Part shown: piece after piece, positions 16,613 through 46,268 of the stretch
Layout of the letters: every line of letters starts with the position of its first letter
Numbering within the stretch: the stretch's first letter is position 1
DNA from: Mesonia oceanica
GTDB taxonomy: Bacteria > Bacteroidota > Bacteroidia > Flavobacteriales > Flavobacteriaceae
Assembly (NCBI RefSeq): GCF_902499555.1
Contig: NZ_CABVMM010000009.1
Span: 93,178 to 157,177, forward strand
DNA: 64,000 nucleotides
Direction: 5' to 3'
Made by a program: the position numbers and the translations under genes
Notes under the pieces: model-generated
What the model was told of the DNA's origin: nothing
Seen by the model: the letters and a program-made list of their open reading frames with translations, nothing else
Databases searched by the model: none

Positions 16613-16700
16613 AACCGTTACCCTGAACCTGCCCGTCCGGTAGGCGGGCTTGATTCAGGGTCTCATCCTTACTATTTTTGTTTTTCAATGTAGAATGACG
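16613..16700. repeat. REP/MITE-like palindromic element (ccctgaacctgcccgtccggtaggcgggcttgattcagggtctcatcc ... agaatgacg)
   Basis: Same family as 371-480, 19219-19449, 19797-19955, 21849-21910, 22551-22628, 33185-33286. Confidence 0.6.
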
Positions 16701-16745: not shown

Positions 16746-17510
16746 TTACATTCTAATCTGCTTGATAAAACCATCAATATGCTGGGTTCCGTTTTCAGTT
16801 AAGTGTTTGATAAATGCTGAACCAATGATCGCTCCTTTGGCAAATTTTGTTGCTTTCTGAAAAGTTTCAGCATTGCTGATTCCAAAACCAACAATTTGTG
16901 GATGTTGAAGTTGCATTTGGTCGATTCTTTCAAAATAAGCTTGTTGTGCTTCACCAAAACTATTTGTACTTCCCGTAATACTTGCTGAACTTACCATATA
17001 GATAAAGCCTTCGGAAACTTGATCAATTTGTTGAATTCGCTCTTCAGTGGTTTGTGGCGTAATTAAAAATATATTTTGTAAACCATATTGCTGAAAAATT
17101 TCTTGATATTCTTCGGTATAAACTTCTAAGGGAAGATCAGGAATGATGAGTCCGTCAATGCCTATTTCCTCACATTTTTGGCAGAACTTCTCAATTCCAT
17201 ATTGAAGCATCGGATTAAAATATCCCATGATAATCAAGGGAATGGAAACCGATTTTCGAATGTCTTTCAATTGCTCAAAAAGTTTTTCGCTAGTCATTCC
17301 ATTTTTTAAAGCTTGGGTAGAACTTGCTTGTATGGTTGGGCCATCGGCAAGCGGATCGCTAAAGGGTAAACCAATTTCTACTACATCTACCCCCGATTTT
17401 TCTAATTGCTCAAGAATGGTTTTGGTATCGTCGATTTGAGGGTAGCCAGCGGTGAAATAGATAGAAAGTAACTTTTTGTTTTCTCGTAATTTATGGGTGA
17501 TGCGATTCAT
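16746..17510 (-). CDS. trpA: Tryptophan synthase alpha chain
   Basis: 254 aa, last gene of trpEGDCFBA cluster; TrpA-like fold motifs. Confidence 0.85.
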   Translation of the reverse strand: MNRITHKLRENKKLLSIYFTAGYPQIDDTKTILEQLEKSGVDVVEIGLPFSDPLADGPTIQASSTQALKNGMTSEKLFEQLKDIRKSVSIPLIIMGYFNPMLQYGIEKFCQKCEEIGIDGLIIPDLPLEVYTEEYQEIFQQYGLQNIFLITPQTTEERIQQIDQVSEGFIYMVSSASITGSTNSFGEAQQAYFERIDQMQLQHPQIVGFGISNAETFQKATKFAKGAIIGSAFIKHLTENGTQHIDGFIKQIRM

Positions 17511-17524
17511 TATTTTTAGTTTTG

Positions 17525-17580
17525 TTTACAGTTTACAGTTTACAGTTTACAGTTTACAGTTTACAGTTTACAGTTTACAG
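17525..17580. repeat. Perfect heptanucleotide microsatellite (TTTACAG)x8 (on minus strand CTGTAAA), flanked by degenerate units tttgttt / tttgtga
   Basis: Direct reading of sequence between trpB stop (17693) and trpA start (17510). Confidence 0.9.
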
Positions 17581-17692
17581 TTTGTGATTTTTTTGCGCTA
17601 GGGATAGTAGCGGCATCCTTTTTTGTTGTACTTCGACAAGCTCATTATGACAACAAAAAAGATATAGCGAATAGCCCGCTCAGGCGCCCAAT

Positions 17693-18880
17693 TTATAAAT
17701 CAAAATAATTTATATAAGTTTCTAGGTCTTTATCACCACGTCCGGATAAGTTAATGACAACTACCTCATCGGGTTGAAATTTTTTCTGTCCTAATGCCGC
17801 TAAAGCGTGAGCACTTTCAATTGCTGGGATAATCCCTTCTAATTTAGTAAGCTCAGCTCCGGCTTGCATGGCTTGATCATCGGTAACCGATAAAAATTCT
17901 GCTCGTTTACTGCTAAATAAATGGGCGTGCATTGGGCCAACACCAGGATAATCCAGTCCCGCAGAAATAGAATAAGGTTCGGTAATCTGACCGTCTTTGC
18001 TTTGCATTAATAGCGTTTTACTTCCGTGGATAATTCCGTTATTCCCTAATTGAGAAGTTGCGGCACTTTCTCCACTGTTAATTCCTTTTCCGGCAGCTTC
18101 TACGGCGATGAGGTTGACCTCTTTTTCATCTAAATAATGATAAAAAGCCCCGGCAGCATTGCTACCACCACCTACACAAGCAATAATGTGATCGGGTTGG
18201 GTTCGATTCTCTTTTTCTTGTAGTTGCAATTTAATTTCTTGTGAAATAATGCTTTGCAAACGTGCCACCATATCCGGATAAGGGTGCGGTCCAACCACCG
18301 AACCAATAATATAATGGGTTTCTTCAGGATGATTAATCCAATCTCGAATCGCGTCGTTGGTAGCATCTTTTAAGGTTTTACTCCCTGAGGTTGATGGGAT
18401 CACTTCTGCGCCTAGCATTTTCATACGAGCTACATTGGGCGCTTGGCGTTTCATATCTATTTCACCCATATACACAAAACACGGCATTCCCATGAGTGCG
18501 CAAACCGTAGCGGTGGCTACTCCGTGTTGTCCGGCCCCAGTTTCAGCAATAATTCTTTTTTTACCTAAGCGTTTAGCTAACAGAATTTGACCAACTGTAT
18601 TGTTCACTTTGTGAGCACCGGTATGGCAAAGGTCTTCGCGTTTTAAATAGATGTTGGTGTTGTATTTTTCACTTAACCGTTTGGCAAAGTAGAGTGGAGT
18701 AGGGCGACCTACATAATCTCGTAACAATTGCTGATATTCTTCTTGAAATGATTGCTCGCTAAGAATAGCTAAGTAGTTTTCTTTTAACTGTGCAATATTT
18801 GGGTAGAGCATTTCAGGAATAAAAGCACCGCCGTATTCACCGTAATAGCCTTGTTCATTTATATGATTTGTTGTACTCAT
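17693..18880 (-). CDS. trpB: Tryptophan synthase beta chain (PLP-dependent)
   Basis: 395 aa; conserved TrpB motifs (HTGAHK, GGGSNA). Confidence 0.9.
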   Translation of the reverse strand: MSTTNHINEQGYYGEYGGAFIPEMLYPNIAQLKENYLAILSEQSFQEEYQQLLRDYVGRPTPLYFAKRLSEKYNTNIYLKREDLCHTGAHKVNNTVGQILLAKRLGKKRIIAETGAGQHGVATATVCALMGMPCFVYMGEIDMKRQAPNVARMKMLGAEVIPSTSGSKTLKDATNDAIRDWINHPEETHYIIGSVVGPHPYPDMVARLQSIISQEIKLQLQEKENRTQPDHIIACVGGGSNAAGAFYHYLDEKEVNLIAVEAAGKGINSGESAATSQLGNNGIIHGSKTLLMQSKDGQITEPYSISAGLDYPGVGPMHAHLFSSKRAEFLSVTDDQAMQAGAELTKLEGIIPAIESAHALAALGQKKFQPDEVVVINLSGRGDKDLETYINYFDL

Positions 18881-19785
18881 AGCAATTGAGTTTTAAAATT
18901 TTTTAAATCGTCTATATTTTTTTTGCCGGGTTGGGTTTCAAACTTACTGTTTACATCTAGGGCATAAAGCGGTAAATTAAATTCTTGAAACGCCTTAATT
19001 TTTTCGACTTCTTCTAAACCAATACCTCCACTTAAGAAAAATGGTTTTTGAAAAGGGTAATTTTTTAAGACTTGCCAATCGAAAGTGAAACCATTTCCTC
19101 CAGGATTTTTTCCTTTGGTGTCAAATAAAAAGTAATCTACCACCGGAAGATATGTTTCCAATTCCTGAAAATTGAATTGATCTTGAATAGAAAATGCTTT
19201 GATGATTTCAATGGAATTTGATTTGGTTTGATGTGATGCTGTCCCTCGACTCCGCTCGGGATAATTTTCAATAAGTTGATTTTGTTTTTTTAGAGCATCA
19301 CCCTGAATATGTTTCAGGGGCTCATTCTTATTCTCATTTTTGATGTGATGCTGAATCGAGTTCAGCATGACGTCGGGAAATTCGTCATCCCGGACCTGCC
19401 CGTCCGGCAGGCGGGCTTGATCCGGGATCTCATCTCGCTTTTTATTACTGAATAAATTTCTTAATTGTTGGCAATACTCCACATTTTCGTTCCCGTGAAG
19501 TTGAATGGCCTGTAAATTGTAATCTTCAACTTTTTGTTGAATAAAACTTGGTTCTGCGTTCACAAAAACACCTGTTTTTTTTATGGATGAATGAATATCA
19601 GGAATATTTTCATTCATAAACCGAGGTGATTTTTCATAGAAAATAAAACCCATATAGTCGGGTTGGAGTTGGGTTAACTCCAAAATATTTTCTTCATATT
19701 TCATTCCGCAGACTTTAAGCCCCAACCTAGCCTTCCCCCAAGGGGAAGGAAATGGAACATTTGTATTTGGCTTATTATTTTTCAT
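18877..19785 (-). CDS. trpF: Phosphoribosylanthranilate isomerase carrying an in-frame ~85-codon insertion derived from REP/MITE elements
   Basis: 302 aa vs ~210 typical; N-half (LKVCGM...IQLHGNE) and C-half (VDYFLFDTKG...GGNGFTFDW...LSGGI) match TrpF; central segment aa ~112-196 is encoded by palindromic repeat copies (19219-19449). Confidence 0.7.
   Translation of the reverse strand: MKNNKPNTNVPFPSPWGKARLGLKVCGMKYEENILELTQLQPDYMGFIFYEKSPRFMNENIPDIHSSIKKTGVFVNAEPSFIQQKVEDYNLQAIQLHGNENVEYCQQLRNLFSNKKRDEIPDQARLPDGQVRDDEFPDVMLNSIQHHIKNENKNEPLKHIQGDALKKQNQLIENYPERSRGTASHQTKSNSIEIIKAFSIQDQFNFQELETYLPVVDYFLFDTKGKNPGGNGFTFDWQVLKNYPFQKPFFLSGGIGLEEVEKIKAFQEFNLPLYALDVNSKFETQPGKKNIDDLKNFKTQLL
19219..19449. 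repeat. Cluster of REP/MITE-like elements lying inside the trpF reading frame
   Basis: Contains tgatgtgatgctgtccctcgactccgctcgg, tgatgtgatgctgaatcgagttcagcatgacg and cgtcatcccggacctgcccgtccggcaggcgggcttgatccgggatctcatc, all matching intergenic copies elsewhere. Confidence 0.65.
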
Positions 19786-19796
19786 ATTTGGTTCTT

Positions 19797-19955
19797 TTCG
19801 TCATCCCAGACCTGCCTGTCCGTCAGGCGAACTTGATCTGGGGTCTCATCTTGATTTGCTCTTTTGATGTGATGCTGTCCCTCGACTCCGCTCGGGGTGA
19901 CTAAGATCTTCAATTAGACGCTTTATCTCGTCTTCCGTATCTGACACGGAATCTC
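19797..19955. repeat. REP/MITE-like elements in trpC-trpF intergenic region (3 units)
   Basis: tcgtcatcccagacctgcctgtccgtcaggcgaacttgatctggggtctcatc; gatgtgatgctgtccctcgactccgctcggggtgac; cgtcttccgtatctgacacggaatctcatc. Confidence 0.65.
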
Positions 19956-19958
19956 ATC

Positions 19959-20753
19959 TTACTTTTTCCGTTCAATTTCTTCAATAAAATTTTTAGCACT
20001 TTCCCCGGGATTTTCAGTTTTCATGAACGTTTCTCCTATCAAAAAACCTCGGTAACCATATTCTCTTAATTCTAAAGTATCGGAAGTAGATTGGAGTCCG
20101 CTTTCAGAAATTTTCACCATTTCTTCAGGAATTAAGGAAGATAGTTGTTTACTGATTTCCGTAGAAACTTCAAATGTTTTTAGGTTCCGGTTGTTTACTC
20201 CAATGAGTTGAACTTGTGCCTGAAGGTTTGCTTGTAATTCTTCTGTGTTGTGAACTTCTAATAAAACTTCCATCCCTAATTCATTAGCGAGTAAAGCGAA
20301 ATTTTTTATTTGTTGCGGACTCAAAATGGCAGCAATTAATAGGATTACATCGGCGCCGTTAGCTTTGGCCTCTAGCATTTGATACTCATCGATGATGAAA
20401 TCTTTTCGCAGCAAAGGGAATTGTACACTCGATCTAGCCAGTTGTAAATCTTCTAAAGAACCTCCGAAAAAACTATTATCGGTTAAAACAGAACTTCCGC
20501 ATGCTCCCGCTTTTTGATAGCTTACAAGCACTTCATTCACATATAAATTTTGATTGATGTTGGGCTTAGAAGGAGATCTTCGTTTGTGCTCTGCTATAAT
20601 TCCGCTTTCACTTTTCTTTAAAGCTTGGCTTAACGAAAAACATGCTCGGTTAAAAAGTGGCGATTGCTCTACATATTTTATGGGAAGCAATTCTTTTTTT
20701 AGCTGAATTTCTGTAAGCTTATGCTTGACGATGGTATCTAAAATAGTAGCCAT
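19959..20753 (-). CDS. trpC: Indole-3-glycerol phosphate synthase
   Basis: 264 aa; IGPS motifs (IAEHKRRSPS, LLIAAIL). Confidence 0.85.
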   Translation of the reverse strand: MATILDTIVKHKLTEIQLKKELLPIKYVEQSPLFNRACFSLSQALKKSESGIIAEHKRRSPSKPNINQNLYVNEVLVSYQKAGACGSSVLTDNSFFGGSLEDLQLARSSVQFPLLRKDFIIDEYQMLEAKANGADVILLIAAILSPQQIKNFALLANELGMEVLLEVHNTEELQANLQAQVQLIGVNNRNLKTFEVSTEISKQLSSLIPEEMVKISESGLQSTSDTLELREYGYRGFLIGETFMKTENPGESAKNFIEEIERKK

Positions 20754-21745
20754 TATGCACTTAATTTTTGGAGTGTTTTTAATTTTTCTAAGGCTTTACC
20801 ACTTTTTAGTGATTCTTCTGCCAAGGCTAAGCCTTCTGAAATACTACAGTTTTTAGCGGTTGAAATGGCTAGGGCAGCATTGGCACAAACCACTTGATGT
20901 TGAGCTTTAGAACCTTGACCGTTTAAAATTTTCTGAAAAATCTTTACCGCTTCAGGAATCGTTTCTCCTCCATAAATTTCTTCGGCTTTAATTTTTTCAG
21001 CTTTAAAATCTTCGGGAGTTAAAACCGTATTTATTTGATTACCTACAATTTTGGTATCTCCGGTGAGGGAAACTTCATCGTAACCATCAAGGGCGTGTAC
21101 AATTTTAAAATTAGTATCGGTATGTTGATAGAGATAACTGTAAATTCTCGCTAATTCCAAACTAAAAACTCCTACTATTTGGTTGGGCGGTTTTGCAGGG
21201 TTTACCATGGGACCTAACATATTGAAGAACGTTTTTACCGCTAAATCTTTTCGTATCGGAGCGACAAACTTCATAGCCGGATGAAAAAGTGGTGCGTGTA
21301 GCACGCATATGCCTGCTTTTTCTAAACAGGTTTCTAAAAACGCCTGATCGTTAGAAAATTTGACTCCAAGATTTTCCAGAACATTACTACTTCCGCTGAC
21401 CGAAGAAACACTGTAATTTCCGTGTTTGGTCACCTTAACTCCAGCTCCGGCAGTGATGAACGATGCTAGGGTAGATATGTTAAACGTGTTTTTGCCATCG
21501 CCGCCCGTTCCACATAAATCGATGGGATGATGATCTGCTAAATTGAGGGGAACCGCAAGTTCTAATAAAGCATCACGAAAACCTGCTAACTCTTCAATGG
21601 TAATGCTACGCATCATATAAACGGTAAGAAAACTAGCAACCTGACTATGATTTGCTTTGCCTTCAGAAATATTGATAAGCGCTTGTTTAGCTTCCGCTTT
21701 GCTTAAAATTTCGTGATGTGTTAATCTGTTGAGTAATTGTTTCAT
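20753..21745 (-). CDS. trpD: Anthranilate phosphoribosyltransferase
   Basis: 330 aa; GTGGDG and KHGN motifs. Confidence 0.85.
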   Translation of the reverse strand: MKQLLNRLTHHEILSKAEAKQALINISEGKANHSQVASFLTVYMMRSITIEELAGFRDALLELAVPLNLADHHPIDLCGTGGDGKNTFNISTLASFITAGAGVKVTKHGNYSVSSVSGSSNVLENLGVKFSNDQAFLETCLEKAGICVLHAPLFHPAMKFVAPIRKDLAVKTFFNMLGPMVNPAKPPNQIVGVFSLELARIYSYLYQHTDTNFKIVHALDGYDEVSLTGDTKIVGNQINTVLTPEDFKAEKIKAEEIYGGETIPEAVKIFQKILNGQGSKAQHQVVCANAALAISTAKNCSISEGLALAEESLKSGKALEKLKTLQKLSA

Positions 21746-21848
21746 TTTTACCTATTTTCCTTCTAAAAAAGAGTTTTAGATGATGAATTTATTTTAAAAG
21801 GACGTTTTTCATTTATTCGATTCCTGTGAATTTTCAATCAGCGTGTTC

Positions 21849-21910
21849 TCATCCTTCTGATGTGACCCTGAATCAAGCCCGCCTGCCGGACGGGCAGGTT
21901 CAGGGTGACG
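21849..21910. repeat. REP/MITE-like element (inverse orientation: gtgaccctgaatcaagcccgcctgccggacgggcaggttcagggtgacg)
   Basis: Reverse complement of the 19385-19440 unit. Confidence 0.6.
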
Positions 21911-21918
21911 ATAGGGAA

Positions 21919-22512
21919 TTAAGCTGAGACCGTTTCTTCATTTTTAACTGGGATTTCTATCCAATTTTTTAAGATTTCTTTTCCTTGTGGCGTGAGTACC
22001 GATTCCGGATGAAATTGGACACCATACACCTGAAAATCTCGGTGACGCAATGACATGATTTGTCCGTTTTCATCATAAGAAGTTGGGATTAATGAGTGGG
22101 GTAAGTCTTGAACTACCCAAGAATGGTAGCGGCCTACTTCTAATTTCTGCGGAAGATTTTTAAAGAGCGTCTCCTCATGGTCAATAATTTGAATTGGGGT
22201 AGCAACTCCATGAAAAACCTGATTTAAATTGTTGAGTTTTCCTCCAAAAACTTCACCTATGGCTTGTTGCCCTAAGCAAACGCCTAAAATACTTTTAGTA
22301 GGCGCATAAGTACTTACAATCTTGTTCAGTAATCCTGCTTCTGAGGGAATGCCAGGTCCCGGGGAAAGTAAGATTCTATCGAAGACTTCAATTTCATCTA
22401 AATCAATTTCGTTATTTCTTCTTACGATGACTTCACAATCGAGATCTTCTAAGTAGTGAACCAAGTTGTATACAAAACTATCGTAATTATCGATGACTAA
22501 TATCTTTTTCAT
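21919..22512 (-). CDS. trpG: Anthranilate synthase component II (glutamine amidotransferase)
   Basis: 197 aa class-I GATase, catalytic GVCLGQQ and HPES motifs. Confidence 0.85.
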   Translation of the reverse strand: MKKILVIDNYDSFVYNLVHYLEDLDCEVIVRRNNEIDLDEIEVFDRILLSPGPGIPSEAGLLNKIVSTYAPTKSILGVCLGQQAIGEVFGGKLNNLNQVFHGVATPIQIIDHEETLFKNLPQKLEVGRYHSWVVQDLPHSLIPTSYDENGQIMSLRHRDFQVYGVQFHPESVLTPQGKEILKNWIEIPVKNEETVSA

Positions 22513-22550
22513 TTTTATGAGATTTCATATTCTAATTAATGAACTCTTTA

Positions 22551-22628
22551 GTCATGCTGATTTTATTTCAGCATCTCATCATCAATTTTACAAGTTGGAT
22601 GAGAACCTGAATCAAGTTCAGGTTGACG
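22551..22628. repeat. REP/MITE-like elements in trpE-trpG intergenic region
   Basis: gtcatgctgattttatttcagcatctcatc and gatgagaacctgaatcaagttcaggttgacg. Confidence 0.6.
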
Positions 22629-22640
22629 CATAGTTTCATT

Positions 22641-24035
22641 TTATAATTCTTTAGCTATTTCAAGGGCTTTGGTAAGTGCTCCTAGTTTATTATAGACTTC
22701 TTGCAATTCGTTTTCAGGTTTAGAGTCGGTTACAATTCCGGCGCCGGCTTGCCAATGAAGTTGATGATCTTTACTTAAAAATGTTCTAATCATTATAGCA
22801 TGGTTAAAGTTTCCTTTAAAATCCATCACTCCTATGGCACCTCCATAAAACGTTCTGTTGACCGTTTCATATTTCTCTATTAACTCTAACGCTTTATATT
22901 TTGGAGCTCCACTTAAAGTTCCTGCAGGAAAGGTGTCTGCCACTAACTGCATGGTGTTGATGTTGTTTTTCTTTTTTCCGGTGACTTTGCTAACCAAGTG
23001 GATCACGTGTGAGAAAAACTGAATTTCACGATAGGTTTCCACGTTTACTTCAGCACAGTTCCTACTTAAATCGTTTCGCGCCAAATCTACGAGCATCACG
23101 TGTTCTGAGTTTTCTTTGGCATCTGAAGCGAGTTGTTTGGCAAGTTCTGCATCCCGTTCATCATTTCCGGAGCGTTTGATGGTGCCGGCAATGGGATGAA
23201 TTTCTGCTATTTCGTTCTCGACAACCAGTTGTGCTTCTGGAGAGCTTCCGAAGATTTTAAAATTTCCGTAGTCAAAATAAAAAAGGTAAGGAGAGGGGTT
23301 TACACTTCGTAAAGCACGATAAACATTAAAATCGTCTCCTTTGAATTTCTGAGTGAAACGCTTCGATAGTACCAGTTGAAAAACGTCACCACGTGCACAA
23401 TGTTGCTTTGCTTTTTCTACGTTTTGTTTGTAAACTTCATCTTCTATATTCGAGATGATTTCTCCGTCGGTTGTAAAATTGAATTGCGCAAAATTCTTGG
23501 TTTGCAGTATAGCTAAAAGTGAATCTAAATTGCTTTCTGAATTGTAGTTGTGCGAAAATAAATAAGCTTCATTGTTAAAATGATTAATGGCAATAATGTT
23601 TTGATACACGGCGTAATAAAAATCTGGTATATCAAGTTTGTCTTCTTTTTCTCGAAGTTCAATACTTTCAAAATATTTTACAGCATCATAACCGGTGTAG
23701 CCAAAAATACCGTTGTGAATGAATTTATAATTGGTTTCTTCGGTTTTAAATTGTTGAGCAAAATTTTCTATTTCTGAAGGAATATGAACTTCTGGGGTGA
23801 TTTTTTTTTCAATTTTTTTTCCGTCAGGGTAACTAACCAAAAGCGTATTGTTTTTAGCTTTTATGGAAGCAATTGGATTGCAACAGATGTACGAAAAGCT
23901 GTTTTTATTGGCGTGATAGTCGCTACTTTCTAATAATAAACTATGCGGAAATTGATCACGTAGTTTAAGGTAAATACTCACCGGTGTGATGGTATCTGCG
24001 ATAATTTTTTTGGATTCGGTTGTAAGGGTGTACAT
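22641..24035 (-). CDS. trpE: Anthranilate synthase component I
   Basis: 464 aa; chorismate-binding domain motifs (LVDLARNDL, GGAIG). Confidence 0.85.
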   Translation of the reverse strand: MYTLTTESKKIIADTITPVSIYLKLRDQFPHSLLLESSDYHANKNSFSYICCNPIASIKAKNNTLLVSYPDGKKIEKKITPEVHIPSEIENFAQQFKTEETNYKFIHNGIFGYTGYDAVKYFESIELREKEDKLDIPDFYYAVYQNIIAINHFNNEAYLFSHNYNSESNLDSLLAILQTKNFAQFNFTTDGEIISNIEDEVYKQNVEKAKQHCARGDVFQLVLSKRFTQKFKGDDFNVYRALRSVNPSPYLFYFDYGNFKIFGSSPEAQLVVENEIAEIHPIAGTIKRSGNDERDAELAKQLASDAKENSEHVMLVDLARNDLSRNCAEVNVETYREIQFFSHVIHLVSKVTGKKKNNINTMQLVADTFPAGTLSGAPKYKALELIEKYETVNRTFYGGAIGVMDFKGNFNHAIMIRTFLSKDHQLHWQAGAGIVTDSKPENELQEVYNKLGALTKALEIAKEL

Positions 24036-24060
24036 GATCTTGTTTTAAAATTCATTCAAT

Positions 24061-24088
24061 AAAAAAAGGCTTGTCGTGATGACAAGCC
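24061..24088 (-). terminator. Attenuator terminator hairpin GGCTTGTC-ATCAC-GACAAGCC followed by T7 on minus strand, 28 nt upstream of trpE ATG
   Basis: Perfect 8-bp GC-containing stem plus U-tract; sits between a WWW leader ORF and trpE. Confidence 0.6.
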
Positions 24089-24124
24089 TTTTTGGATATG
24101 GTAAATATACAAAGCGGTGTTAGC

Positions 24125-24181
24125 TCACGACGTTTTTCGTAAGTTATTCCACCACCAAGTATGTACAGTTAAAATTTTCAT
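24125..24181 (-). CDS. trpL: trp operon leader peptide (18 aa: MKILTVHTWWWNNLRKTS) with three consecutive Trp codons
   Basis: Reverse-strand ATG 24181..24179, TGA 24127..24125; TGG TGG TGG at 24157..24149; followed by terminator hairpin; classic ribosome-mediated attenuation layout. Confidence 0.55.
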   Translation of the reverse strand: MKILTVHTWWWNNLRKTS

Positions 24182-24225
24182 TAGTTCAAAGATAAGTAGG
24201 AAATTGAAATTTCCAAATCTTTTAG

Positions 24226-24801
24226 TTAGAATTTAAGTTTTACGTCTAATTTAAATTCATCATAGATCACTTTGTCACCTAAACCGTCAAAGATACTTCC
24301 TGATCCGTATTTTACATCATATTTCGTTCTGTCTATGGTTAAATCTGCAGTTGCGGTATCTCCATTCATTTCTAAATCAAAAGTTACCGGATTTGTTTTT
24401 CCTTTAATGGTAAGGTCTGCAATTATACCGTAAGCATCTCCTTTTTTAGTAGCGTTTTTAATCACTAATTTAGCGGTTGGATGATTGGCAACTCCAAAAA
24501 AGTCATCAGATTTTAAGTGACCTTCTAATTTTTGTTTTCCTTCCCCTTCCAGGTCAGTAGCAGCGATAGAAGTCATATCTACGATAAACTCACCTCCGGT
24601 AATTTTATCACCATCCATAGTTAAGTAACCTTCTTTGAACATGATTGTTCCTTCGTGAGAACCGGTTAGTTTTTCACCTTCCCATTCAATTTTACTTTCT
24701 TTTGTATTTAAAGTTTTCTTTTTAATAGGATTTGTGGTAAAAGAAATCATTGTGAATACCATGGCTAAAAGCCCAGCAGATTTTAAAATTTTTGTGTTCA
24801 T
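24226..24801 (-). CDS. YceI-family periplasmic polyisoprenoid-binding protein
   Basis: 191 aa with signal peptide; YceI-like beta-barrel segments. Confidence 0.6.
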   Translation of the reverse strand: MNTKILKSAGLLAMVFTMISFTTNPIKKKTLNTKESKIEWEGEKLTGSHEGTIMFKEGYLTMDGDKITGGEFIVDMTSIAATDLEGEGKQKLEGHLKSDDFFGVANHPTAKLVIKNATKKGDAYGIIADLTIKGKTNPVTFDLEMNGDTATADLTIDRTKYDVKYGSGSIFDGLGDKVIYDEFKLDVKLKF

Positions 24802-24827
24802 CTTTTTGATAATTAAAGTGTTTATAG

Positions 24828-25460
24828 TTAAATATTGATAAATAAATCTTCGTTAGATTTTCTAACTTTCTTATAGTTTTGGGTAATATCCTCTTCACTT
24901 CTGTAACCTGCCGTTGCAATTACAGCGGTAGTCAAGCCTTTTTCTTTTAAACCTAGAATTTCATCAAATTCTTCCGCATTAAAGCCTTCCATCGGGCAAG
25001 TATCTATTTTTAATGTGGCAGCAGCATTTAATAAAAAGCCTAAGGCTATATAGGTTTGTTTAGCCGTCCAAACTGCTTGTTGGTCTTTTGGTAAGCTCAT
25101 CGATGCGCCTTTAATCATTTCTGCAAATTGATCTAATTCAGAAAGATCCATCCCTCTAGTTTCAGCCACATTTTTCATGTAATCTTGAATGTATTCTTCT
25201 TTTACTTCTGTATAAGAAGCAAAAACAAATACTTGAGATGCCTCGGTAAGTTGAGGTTGATTAAAGGCTGCTGCTCTTAGTTTTTCCTTTGTCTTTTCAT
25301 CTTCAATTACCAATACTTGGTAAGGTTGAAGTCCATAAGAAGAAGCGCTTAAGCGAACAGCTTCTTTTAGCGCTGAAAGGTCTTCAGCAGAGATTTTTTT
25401 ATTTTCGTCAAAACGTTTGGTGGCGTATCTCCAATTTAAATTTTCTAAGTGTGTTTTCAT
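24828..25460 (-). CDS. NAD(P)H nitroreductase family protein
   Basis: 210 aa; nitroreductase fold motifs (RYATKRF, conserved C-terminal GY). Confidence 0.7.
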   Translation of the reverse strand: MKTHLENLNWRYATKRFDENKKISAEDLSALKEAVRLSASSYGLQPYQVLVIEDEKTKEKLRAAAFNQPQLTEASQVFVFASYTEVKEEYIQDYMKNVAETRGMDLSELDQFAEMIKGASMSLPKDQQAVWTAKQTYIALGFLLNAAATLKIDTCPMEGFNAEEFDEILGLKEKGLTTAVIATAGYRSEEDITQNYKKVRKSNEDLFINI

Positions 25461-25500
25461 GATTGTTGTATGTACAAATGTTTAATTAAATTTTTTTGAG

Positions 25501-45865: not shown

Positions 45866-45881
45866 TGTAGAGTGGAGTCGG

Positions 45882-46268
45882 GGAGATTCGAACTCCCGTC
45901 CAAACAAGCAATTCAATAGCTTTCTACACGCTTATTTTTCACTTCAATTTTCGAGAAAGATCTGGCAGAAAACCTCCCAATCTTTCCTTAACCTTTAAGA
46001 TTTCAATAGCCCTTAAAGGTATCGAGCTACCTAGATTTACTTTATCGGTGCCTCTAGTTGGAACGCCATAAATCAAGGCTTTCCAGAGACATCTTAGCCC
46101 TATGCCTTGCATAGGTTAAGGTAATCTTACTTTAGTTCAGATTACGCAGCTAAGGCGTAATTATTTTCGCCGTTTAAAAAAGTTTGAAATATGAGATTTA
46201 CGAGCTGTATCCCAGCGCTCGACGTGCTTACTACTCAATTAGACTCGCTGTCAAAACCAGTCGACCCC
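45882..46268 (-). ncRNA. ssrA: tmRNA (SsrA), tag peptide (G)ENNYALAA
   Basis: 5' GGGGTCGACTGGTTTTGACAG...; internal ORF GGC GAA AAT AAT TAC GCC TTA GCT GCG TAA (46172..46143) = GENNYALAA*; 3' end GGACGGGAGTTCGAATCTCCCCGACTCCAC matches canonical tmRNA T-arm/acceptor. Confidence 0.9.

Follow-up and report, generated by a model that had tools for sequence, protein, structure and literature searches.

A predicted ribosome-mediated tryptophan attenuator of the RF01692 family upstream of the trp operon of Mesonia oceanica

The window analysed here is a 64,000-nt stretch of the Mesonia oceanica genome in which seven open-reading frames, running from 24035 to 16746 on the minus strand, were identified with Pfam as trpE, trpG, trpD, trpC, trpF, trpB, and trpA. 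Co-directional YceI-like, nitroreductase, and MarR genes lie upstream of the operon. The features of the leader region that precedes trpE are listed below in the direction of the minus strand, with window coordinates and the basis of each assignment.

24214 to 24217, minus strand: candidate −33 box, TTTG, 19 nt upstream of the −7 box
24187 to 24194, minus strand: candidate sigma-A −7 box, TATCTTTG, an exact match to the consensus TAnnTTTG
24182, minus strand: predicted start of transcription, an A that precedes the leader AUG by 1 nt, placed from the position of the −7 box
24125 to 24181, minus strand: leader peptide ORF, 18 codons plus TGA, MKILTVHTWWWNNLRKTS, from the sequence and homologous ORFs near trpE
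24107 to 24162, minus strand: hairpin P1 of the Rfam structure, enclosing the hairpin of segment 1 with segment 2, from the minimum free energy (MFE) and centroid folds and the RF01692 structured alignment
24149 to 24157, minus strand: three consecutive Trp codons (codons 9–11), the putative sensing site, from the sequence and alignment A1
24137 to 24143, minus strand: segment 1, CUUACGA (codons 13–15), in a 7-bp inner hairpin of the MFE fold
24120 to 24131, minus strand: segment 2, GUCGUGA plus GCUAA, predicted 5′ strand of the antiterminator, which includes the leader stop, from conservation and spacing
24073 to 24079, minus strand: segment 3, UCACGAC, the last 4 loop nucleotides and the first 3 nt of the terminator 3′ arm, from conservation and masked folds
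24061 to 24093, minus strand: intrinsic terminator, A5-GGCUUGUC-AUCAC-GACAAGCC-U7, from the sequence, the fold, and the 68-leader alignment
16746 to 24035, minus strand: the regulated operon trpE-G-D-C-F-B-A, from Pfam matches to Chorismate_bind/Anth_synt_I_N, GATase, Glycos_transf_3, IGPS, PRAI, PALP, and Trp_syntA

The leader ORF reads directly from the minus strand as 18 codons from the ATG at 24181 to the TGA at 24127–24125, without a Shine-Dalgarno sequence. This reading, together with the conservation of the ORF in relatives, confirms the initial annotation, made from the sequence, of a short minus-strand ORF of 18 aa with three TGG codons in tandem that ends at 24125. The WWW run occupies codons 9–11, and the Trp codons form the 5′ arm of a hairpin both in the MFE fold and in the Rfam consensus structure. 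The nucleotide run itself, TGGTGGTGG at 24157–24149, occurs only once in the 64-kb window, where 0.13 occurrences are expected by chance, and at least one copy arose in 13 of 100 shuffles of the window.

Downstream of the ORF on the same strand lies the terminator, with the 5′ arm GGCTTGTC at 24088–24081, the loop ATCAC at 24080–24076, the 3′ arm GACAAGCC at 24075–24068, and a run of seven T residues at 24067–24061. The five A residues at 24093–24089 extend the stem from 8 to 13 bp, and the window holds no second copy of the hairpin, against an expectation of 0. It had been annotated as a perfect hairpin with an ATCAC loop and T7 at 24061–24088, in agreement with both the direct reading and its conservation in 68 of 68 aligned leaders. 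The distance to trpE needs correction from the 28 nt originally given, as the end of the T-run and the trpE ATG at 24035 are 25 nt apart. An intrinsic terminator is therefore present between the leader ORF and the first structural gene, which is the arrangement that a mechanism-based definition of attenuation calls for. For the 161-nt leader region, the predicted folding energy is −43.6 kcal/mol (z = −5.5; none of 200 shuffles did as well), and the structure consists of a large hairpin containing the Trp codons and, after it, the 13-bp terminator. A generic terminator scan did not list the trp leader hairpin, we think because the T-run needed by the scan is consumed by the A5/T5 extension; this is a limit of the scan and not counter-evidence.

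Relatives of this locus were collected by a TrpE search with one genome per species, giving 80 Flavobacteriaceae trpE loci at 69–92% identity; the closest TrpE relatives all belong to this family, the best being that of Salegentibacter sp. R32 at 92%. A leader ORF with WWW, or rarely WW, is present at most 360 nt from trpE in about 69 of the 80 loci, spread over many genera, and an alignment was made with MAFFT of 68 distinct leaders in which this terminator is present as well (alignment A1). Two of the three TGG triplets are invariant in this alignment and the third is nearly so. The first Trp codon follows the ATG by 8 codons in about 64 of 66 leaders despite differing N-terminal sequences, and the run-up spans 7–11 codons in divergent Rfam seed members, whose sequences were read by eye. 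Nine loci showed no leader in the 360-nt scan, and eight of these nine have a match to RF01692, seven of them 430–550 nt upstream of trpE.

Several of the relatives, among them Salegentibacter and Flagellimonas species, carry a gene for a 98-aa GIY-YIG nuclease (PF01541, E = 1.2e-17) between the attenuator and trpE (locus L048, positions 1142–1438, and likewise loci L043, L047, L058, L063, L021, and L037), and the attenuator is thereby displaced to 430–550 nt upstream.

Alignment A1 shows hardly any variation in the terminator sequence, GGCTTGTC-(n)TCAC-GACA(A/G)GCC, with 98.3% of cells paired over the 68 leaders and one compensatory change from G-C to A-U. In more distant members the hairpin is retained but its stem sequence differs, as in GGCUUACUGG/CCGGUAAGCC and GGUCUGC/GCAGACC. 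The hexamer UCGUGA at the end of the leader ORF was found in 67 of 68 leaders and its complement UCACGA in all 68, whatever the reading frame: UCGUGA is kept as Ser plus stop, as in-frame Phe-Val-Asn (TTC GTG AAC), or downstream of the stop. Retention irrespective of frame indicates that selection acts on the RNA and not on the peptide.

As a separate observation, alignment columns 96–124 (window 24093–24061) are near-identical in stem and loop across many Flavobacteriaceae genera, and the neighbouring spacer varies freely.

The Sinorhizobium leader peptide peTrpL reportedly has a function of its own. A comparable role for the conserved peptide tail NLRxTS was considered and set aside, because the frame-shifted variants retain the nucleotides but not the amino acids.

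The region from 24201 to 24081 matches the Rfam family RF01692, "Bacteroid-trp", over model positions 1–131 of 131 with 81.2 bits against a gathering threshold of 49 (E = 3.9e-10 in the 2.5-kb search and 9.9e-09 when the whole window was searched). Besides a score above threshold, the locus has a position upstream of trpE in a member of the Bacteroidetes and at least two UGG codons in a short ORF within a hairpin. This motif was described by Weinberg et al. in 2010 upstream of trpB and trpE in Bacteroidetes as containing two or more UGG codons, in the words "presumably a peptide leader" and "a loosely conserved hairpin", and the passages that treat it carry no consensus diagram (PMC2864571). 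The published family and the present locus have in common the position upstream of trpE, the tandem UGG codons inside a hairpin, and the conserved 3′ end AAAAAGGCUUGUC, and nothing essential differs. The antiterminator, spacing rules, and promoter position, which do not figure in the passages describing the motif in PMC2864571, are in silico additions of the present analysis.

Guérin et al. (2021) mapped the element, with transcriptome support, upstream of the operon trpE-pabA-trpDCFBA in Flavobacterium psychrophilum, described condition-specific read-through with maximal expression in minimal medium, and concluded that leader-peptide attenuation is probable (PMC9723704); PMC6414381 also mentions the trp leader element. 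The F. psychrophilum copy has the same layout as the one described here, with MNTFLNNTWWWNNLRQTS as its leader (PMC9723704). Attenuators proposed in the same paper for hisG, pheA, and ilvE of that species share the phylum and the proposed mechanism but concern other amino acids and operons, and the evidence for them is of the same kind, namely a short ORF rich in the cognate codons, a structured 5′ region, and conditional read-through. The layout had been annotated as read directly from a Flavobacteriia genome, a reading that is not new in view of the family published in 2010 (PMC2864571) and the F. psychrophilum mapping (PMC9723704). A literature search for trp attenuation in Bacteroidetes or Flavobacterium found no mechanistic experiment on this phylum, so that the accompanying remark, which assigns nearly all experimental work on attenuation to Proteobacteria, is broadly correct; actinobacterial attenuation experiments do exist, as cited in PMC4833913. 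The Trp-sensing leader-peptide attenuator of M. oceanica is an ordinary, well-built example of the catalogued Bacteroidetes family RF01692, and its kind is already known, since it is catalogued under that entry and has been seen in a flavobacterial transcriptome.

At the centre of the regulatory model is a pairing between GUCGUGA (24131–24125), which holds the leader stop codon, and its exact complement UCACGAC (24079–24073), segment 3, which supplies the 3′ strand of the antiterminator core. In hairpin P1, the 5′ arm at 24162–24150, including the Trp codons, pairs with the 3′ arm at 24119–24107, and segment 1 pairs with UCGUGAG (24130–24124) of segment 2, a fold in which segment 1 would act as an anti-antiterminator. 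Six of the seven core antiterminator pairs can form in 67–68 of the 68 leaders and never vary, and the seventh (G:C) can form in 31 of 68; as both strands are invariant in Flavobacteriaceae, the pairing is there consistent with the data, not proven by covariation. RNAalifold on the MAFFT alignment recovered the terminator alone. The pairing of segment 1 with segment 2 came to 65.5% on that alignment, an underestimate that is not informative because the P1 3′ arm and the spacer vary too much in length to align.

RNA folding for mutually exclusive helices, which the initial annotation had proposed as a check, was carried out on the leaders. In the full leader at equilibrium, the 13-bp terminator was always kept, even with a stalled ribosome masked, and the attenuation model therefore depends on co-transcriptional kinetics. 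Because attenuation is decided while the RNA emerges, transcripts cut just after UCACGAC were folded with a ribosome masked at the last Trp codon and a footprint assumed to reach 13 nt beyond the A-site codon. These masked folds contained the full 6-bp core in the MFE structure of 66 of the 68 leaders and five of the six pairs in the other two. When the same transcripts were left unmasked, the antiterminator core was absent from 60 of 68 and segment 2 was paired upstream in 59 of 68. For the window sequence, the MFE structure of the intermediate with a ribosome on the Trp codons combined GUCGUGA:UCACGAC with pairing of ACACC to the terminator 5′ arm at −14.4 to −15.6 kcal/mol, and the fold of 24136–24071 reached −15.6 kcal/mol (z = −3.7, 0 of 200 shuffles as good). 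The antiterminator and the complete terminator stem are about equally stable, with a mean difference of +1.2 kcal/mol, which fits a kinetic switch. The folding check thus yielded the antiterminator in masked co-transcriptional intermediates, and the terminator in the full leader at equilibrium. The leader is thus predicted in silico to have a terminator-excluding antiterminator that is available only upon ribosome stalling at the regulatory codons.

Covariation of the two strands was found among the divergent Rfam seed members. In seven of eight, the terminator loop and the adjoining 2–3 nt of the 3′ arm are paired to a segment 20–24 nt past the last Trp codon, with partner sequences such as GGAAGU:AUUUCC, CUGUGAA:UUCACAG, GUCGAU:AUCGAC, GCCGUAA:UAACGGC, and UCGUGAA:UUCACGG. 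The cognate pairs average −9.1 kcal/mol in a 7 × 7 duplex-energy matrix, compared to −4.3 kcal/mol for non-cognate pairs, and the observed mean was attained by 5 of 20,000 random reassignments of partners, as often as expected from the true assignment alone (1 in 5040); this sample comprises seven lineages only, of which ABCM01000008 is weak at −2.0 kcal/mol. The pairing between the segment at the leader stop and TCACGAC in the terminator loop and 3′ stem, which had been put forward from the window sequence, is thus upheld by invariance, by the ribosome-masked folds, and by the covariation of divergent members. The antiterminator is also predicted without a ribosome in five of the eight divergent members, which suggests that the anti-antiterminator step may not be general.

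Spacing around the core is nearly fixed as well. Segment 2 starts 21–22 nt after the last Trp codon in 64 of the 68 leaders (21 nt in the window), and the stop codon lies −7 to +8 nt from the first base of UCGUGA in 69 of 69. With the stop at this position, a ribosome there would occlude the antiterminator strand, judging from the size of its footprint.

The likely promoter places the start of transcription beside the leader AUG. The TATCTTTG box ends 5 nt before the leader ATG, and a −7 box precedes the leader ORF in 66 of 69 related loci, with none found in the other three; most of the related loci also have TTTG or TTG at the −33 place, in line with the −33 consensus quoted in PMC7366714. 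In F. psychrophilum the −7 box occupies −12 to −5 (PMC9723704), and the start is therefore predicted at 24182, with a 5′ UTR of 1 nt. By the same rule, the predicted 5′ UTR is 0–1 nt in 43 of 69 loci and 4–15 nt in the others, except for one anomalous prediction and the three loci without a box. In F. psychrophilum about 5.5% of mRNAs are leaderless, and a mapped start for the trp leader of that species was not found in the supplement text of the same paper (PMC9723704). From the −7 box 5 nt before the ATG, the M. oceanica leader transcript is predicted to be almost leaderless.

Only tentatively, and with some doubt, do we suggest that the leader peptide in this clade may be translated from a leaderless or 1-nt-leader transcript, as the position of the −7 box and the fixed 8-codon run-up would allow. 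In such a scheme, loading of the ribosome at the 5′ end would replace a Shine-Dalgarno sequence, and perhaps pause-release, in coupling ribosome to polymerase, the terminator loop would be where the antiterminator nucleates, and the near-invariant terminator could mark recognition by a factor.

The spacer that separates the −33 box from the −7 box contains an inverted repeat, GGAAATTTCAATTTCC, at 24199–24214, and many relatives have an AAAAWTTYC-like motif in common in their promoter spacers. These could be a site of promoter-level control or could reflect the usual composition of promoters.

Given this layout, the leader region is very probably a ribosome-mediated transcription attenuator that sets expression of the trp operon by the supply of charged tRNA-Trp. 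Transcription would probably start at or 1 nt before the leader AUG, and a ribosome following the polymerase closely would translate the 18 codons of the leader. With plentiful Trp, this ribosome would reach the UGA within segment 2 and, since the stop codon lies inside or near this segment, would cover it on terminating; GGCUUGUC-AUCAC-GACAAGCC followed by U7 would then form and transcription would end 25 nt before trpE. Without translation, the Trp codons would pair with 24119–24107 in P1, segment 1 would hold segment 2, and the terminator would form. When Trp is scarce, the ribosome would stall on codons 9–11, its footprint would open P1 and cover segment 1, and segment 2, 21 nt past the last Trp codon, would stay exposed. 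Exposed segment 2 and the bases that follow it could pair, before the remaining 3′ arm emerges, with the terminator loop, the three bases that open the 3′ arm, and a portion of the 5′ arm; this pairing would block the terminator and let the polymerase read into trpE.

The closest alternative keeps the Trp attenuator and changes its working part, so that the antiterminator would consist only of the classical pairing between the P1 3′ arm (ACACC...) and the terminator 5′ arm, with GUCGUGA:UCACGAC incidental or used otherwise. The predicted intermediate does also pair ACACC with GG/UGU of the 5′ arm, the extension of pairing from the bases after segment 2 into the 5′ arm is formed in 71% of cells compared to 21–55% in shifted controls, and the core pairing is without covariation inside Flavobacteriaceae. 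The 5′-arm pairing alone is, however, short and irregular, UCGUGA and the loop UCAC are invariant, which a plain loop would not require, and the loop and the stop-codon segment covary in divergent members; we consider this version unlikely. It is also quite improbable that a trans-acting factor, either an RNA-binding protein or a small RNA, reads the near-invariant GGCUUGUC-nUCAC-GACAAGCC instead of or besides the ribosome. Ordinary terminators usually drift more than this stem, which is near-identical, with one compensatory change, across genera whose TrpE is only about 70% identical. Much of this invariance is nevertheless explained by overlapping pairing duties, as the 5′ arm, the loop, and the 3′ arm each have two partners and one of these, segment 2, is also coding, so that a factor is not needed; the outer GGC/GCC pairs are perhaps not accounted for in this way. 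Distant members, moreover, retain the hairpin with other stem sequences, Rfam searches at the locus gave no known RNA family other than RF01692, and we know of no candidate factor for the trp leader hairpin.

A perfect 8+8 palindrome of strongly conserved sequence near the start of trpE might be expected of a DNA operator for a dimeric repressor rather than of an RNA hairpin. This reading is very improbable, given that the repeat is flanked by an A-run and a T-run as in intrinsic terminators and lies downstream of the promoter and the leader ORF, and that distant members keep the pairing and not the sequence, a signature of RNA structure that makes an operator unlikely. That a chance short ORF merely precedes an ordinary terminator without regulatory role is scarcely conceivable: the ORF is tiny and lacks a Shine-Dalgarno sequence, and shuffled windows can produce its TGGTGGTGG run, but in about 69 of 80 loci across many genera the ORF, Trp run, spacings, and terminator are found again upstream of trpE, and this recurrence excludes chance; the locus also exceeds the RF01692 threshold.

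Among other known mechanisms, no T-box match was found in Rfam searches of the 2.5 kb or of the whole window, and by eye the leader contains one GAG and no UAG among TRAP-type triplets. The Yanofsky model of E. coli trpL (RF00513), with its pairings of segments 1:2, 2:3, and 3:4, shares with the present attenuator the tandem-Trp leader ORF, a hairpin that involves the Trp codons, an antiterminator and a terminator that exclude each other, and a stop codon so located that the antiterminator is blocked by a ribosome terminating there. The locus differs in having three Trp codons compared to two in E. coli, in a predicted antiterminator that covers the terminator loop and the first 2–3 nt of the 3′ arm and not the 5′ arm alone, and in lacking a Shine-Dalgarno sequence on a transcript predicted to be nearly leaderless. 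Neither RF00513 (Trp_leader) nor any other trpL-type family was among the 14 matches listed at E ≤ 10 for 23000–25500 on both strands, and the element is for this reason analogous to E. coli trpL and not detectably homologous. The initial description as a textbook trpL-type layout can be kept in that all proposed elements are present and conserved and the locus matches RF01692, but it does not extend to homology with the E. coli element.

What this adds to RF01692 is, in silico only, a concrete pairing and spacing model for segments 1, 2, and 3 and a predicted start beside the AUG. A textbook regulatory logic is thereby predicted to operate in a phylum without Shine-Dalgarno sequences and with an unusual sigma factor, a result of limited importance, and the element could be used as a ready-made reporter for transcription-translation coupling in Bacteroidetes.

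Several further elements were seen in and around the operon. A tmRNA gene (RF00023, 135.4 bits) lies at 45870–46268 on the minus strand. The gap between trpB and trpA (17511–17692) contains a perfect 7-nt tandem repeat, GTTTACA in 8.6 copies at 17524–17583, and just after it, at 17590–17685 on the plus strand and thus antisense to the trp operon, a Flavo-1 RNA motif (RF01705, 59.7 bits). A GC-rich palindromic repeat with the core CCTGCCCGTCCGGCAGGCGGGC occurs at 19227–19441, 19797–19896, 21859–21911, 22551–22616, and 16628–16649 and fills unusually long intergenic gaps of the trp genes (128–182 nt). One copy of this repeat lies within the 302-aa trpF ORF, where about 100 additional residues divide the Pfam PRAI match into two parts; this therefore looks like an in-frame insertion of the repeat element into the trpF coding sequence.
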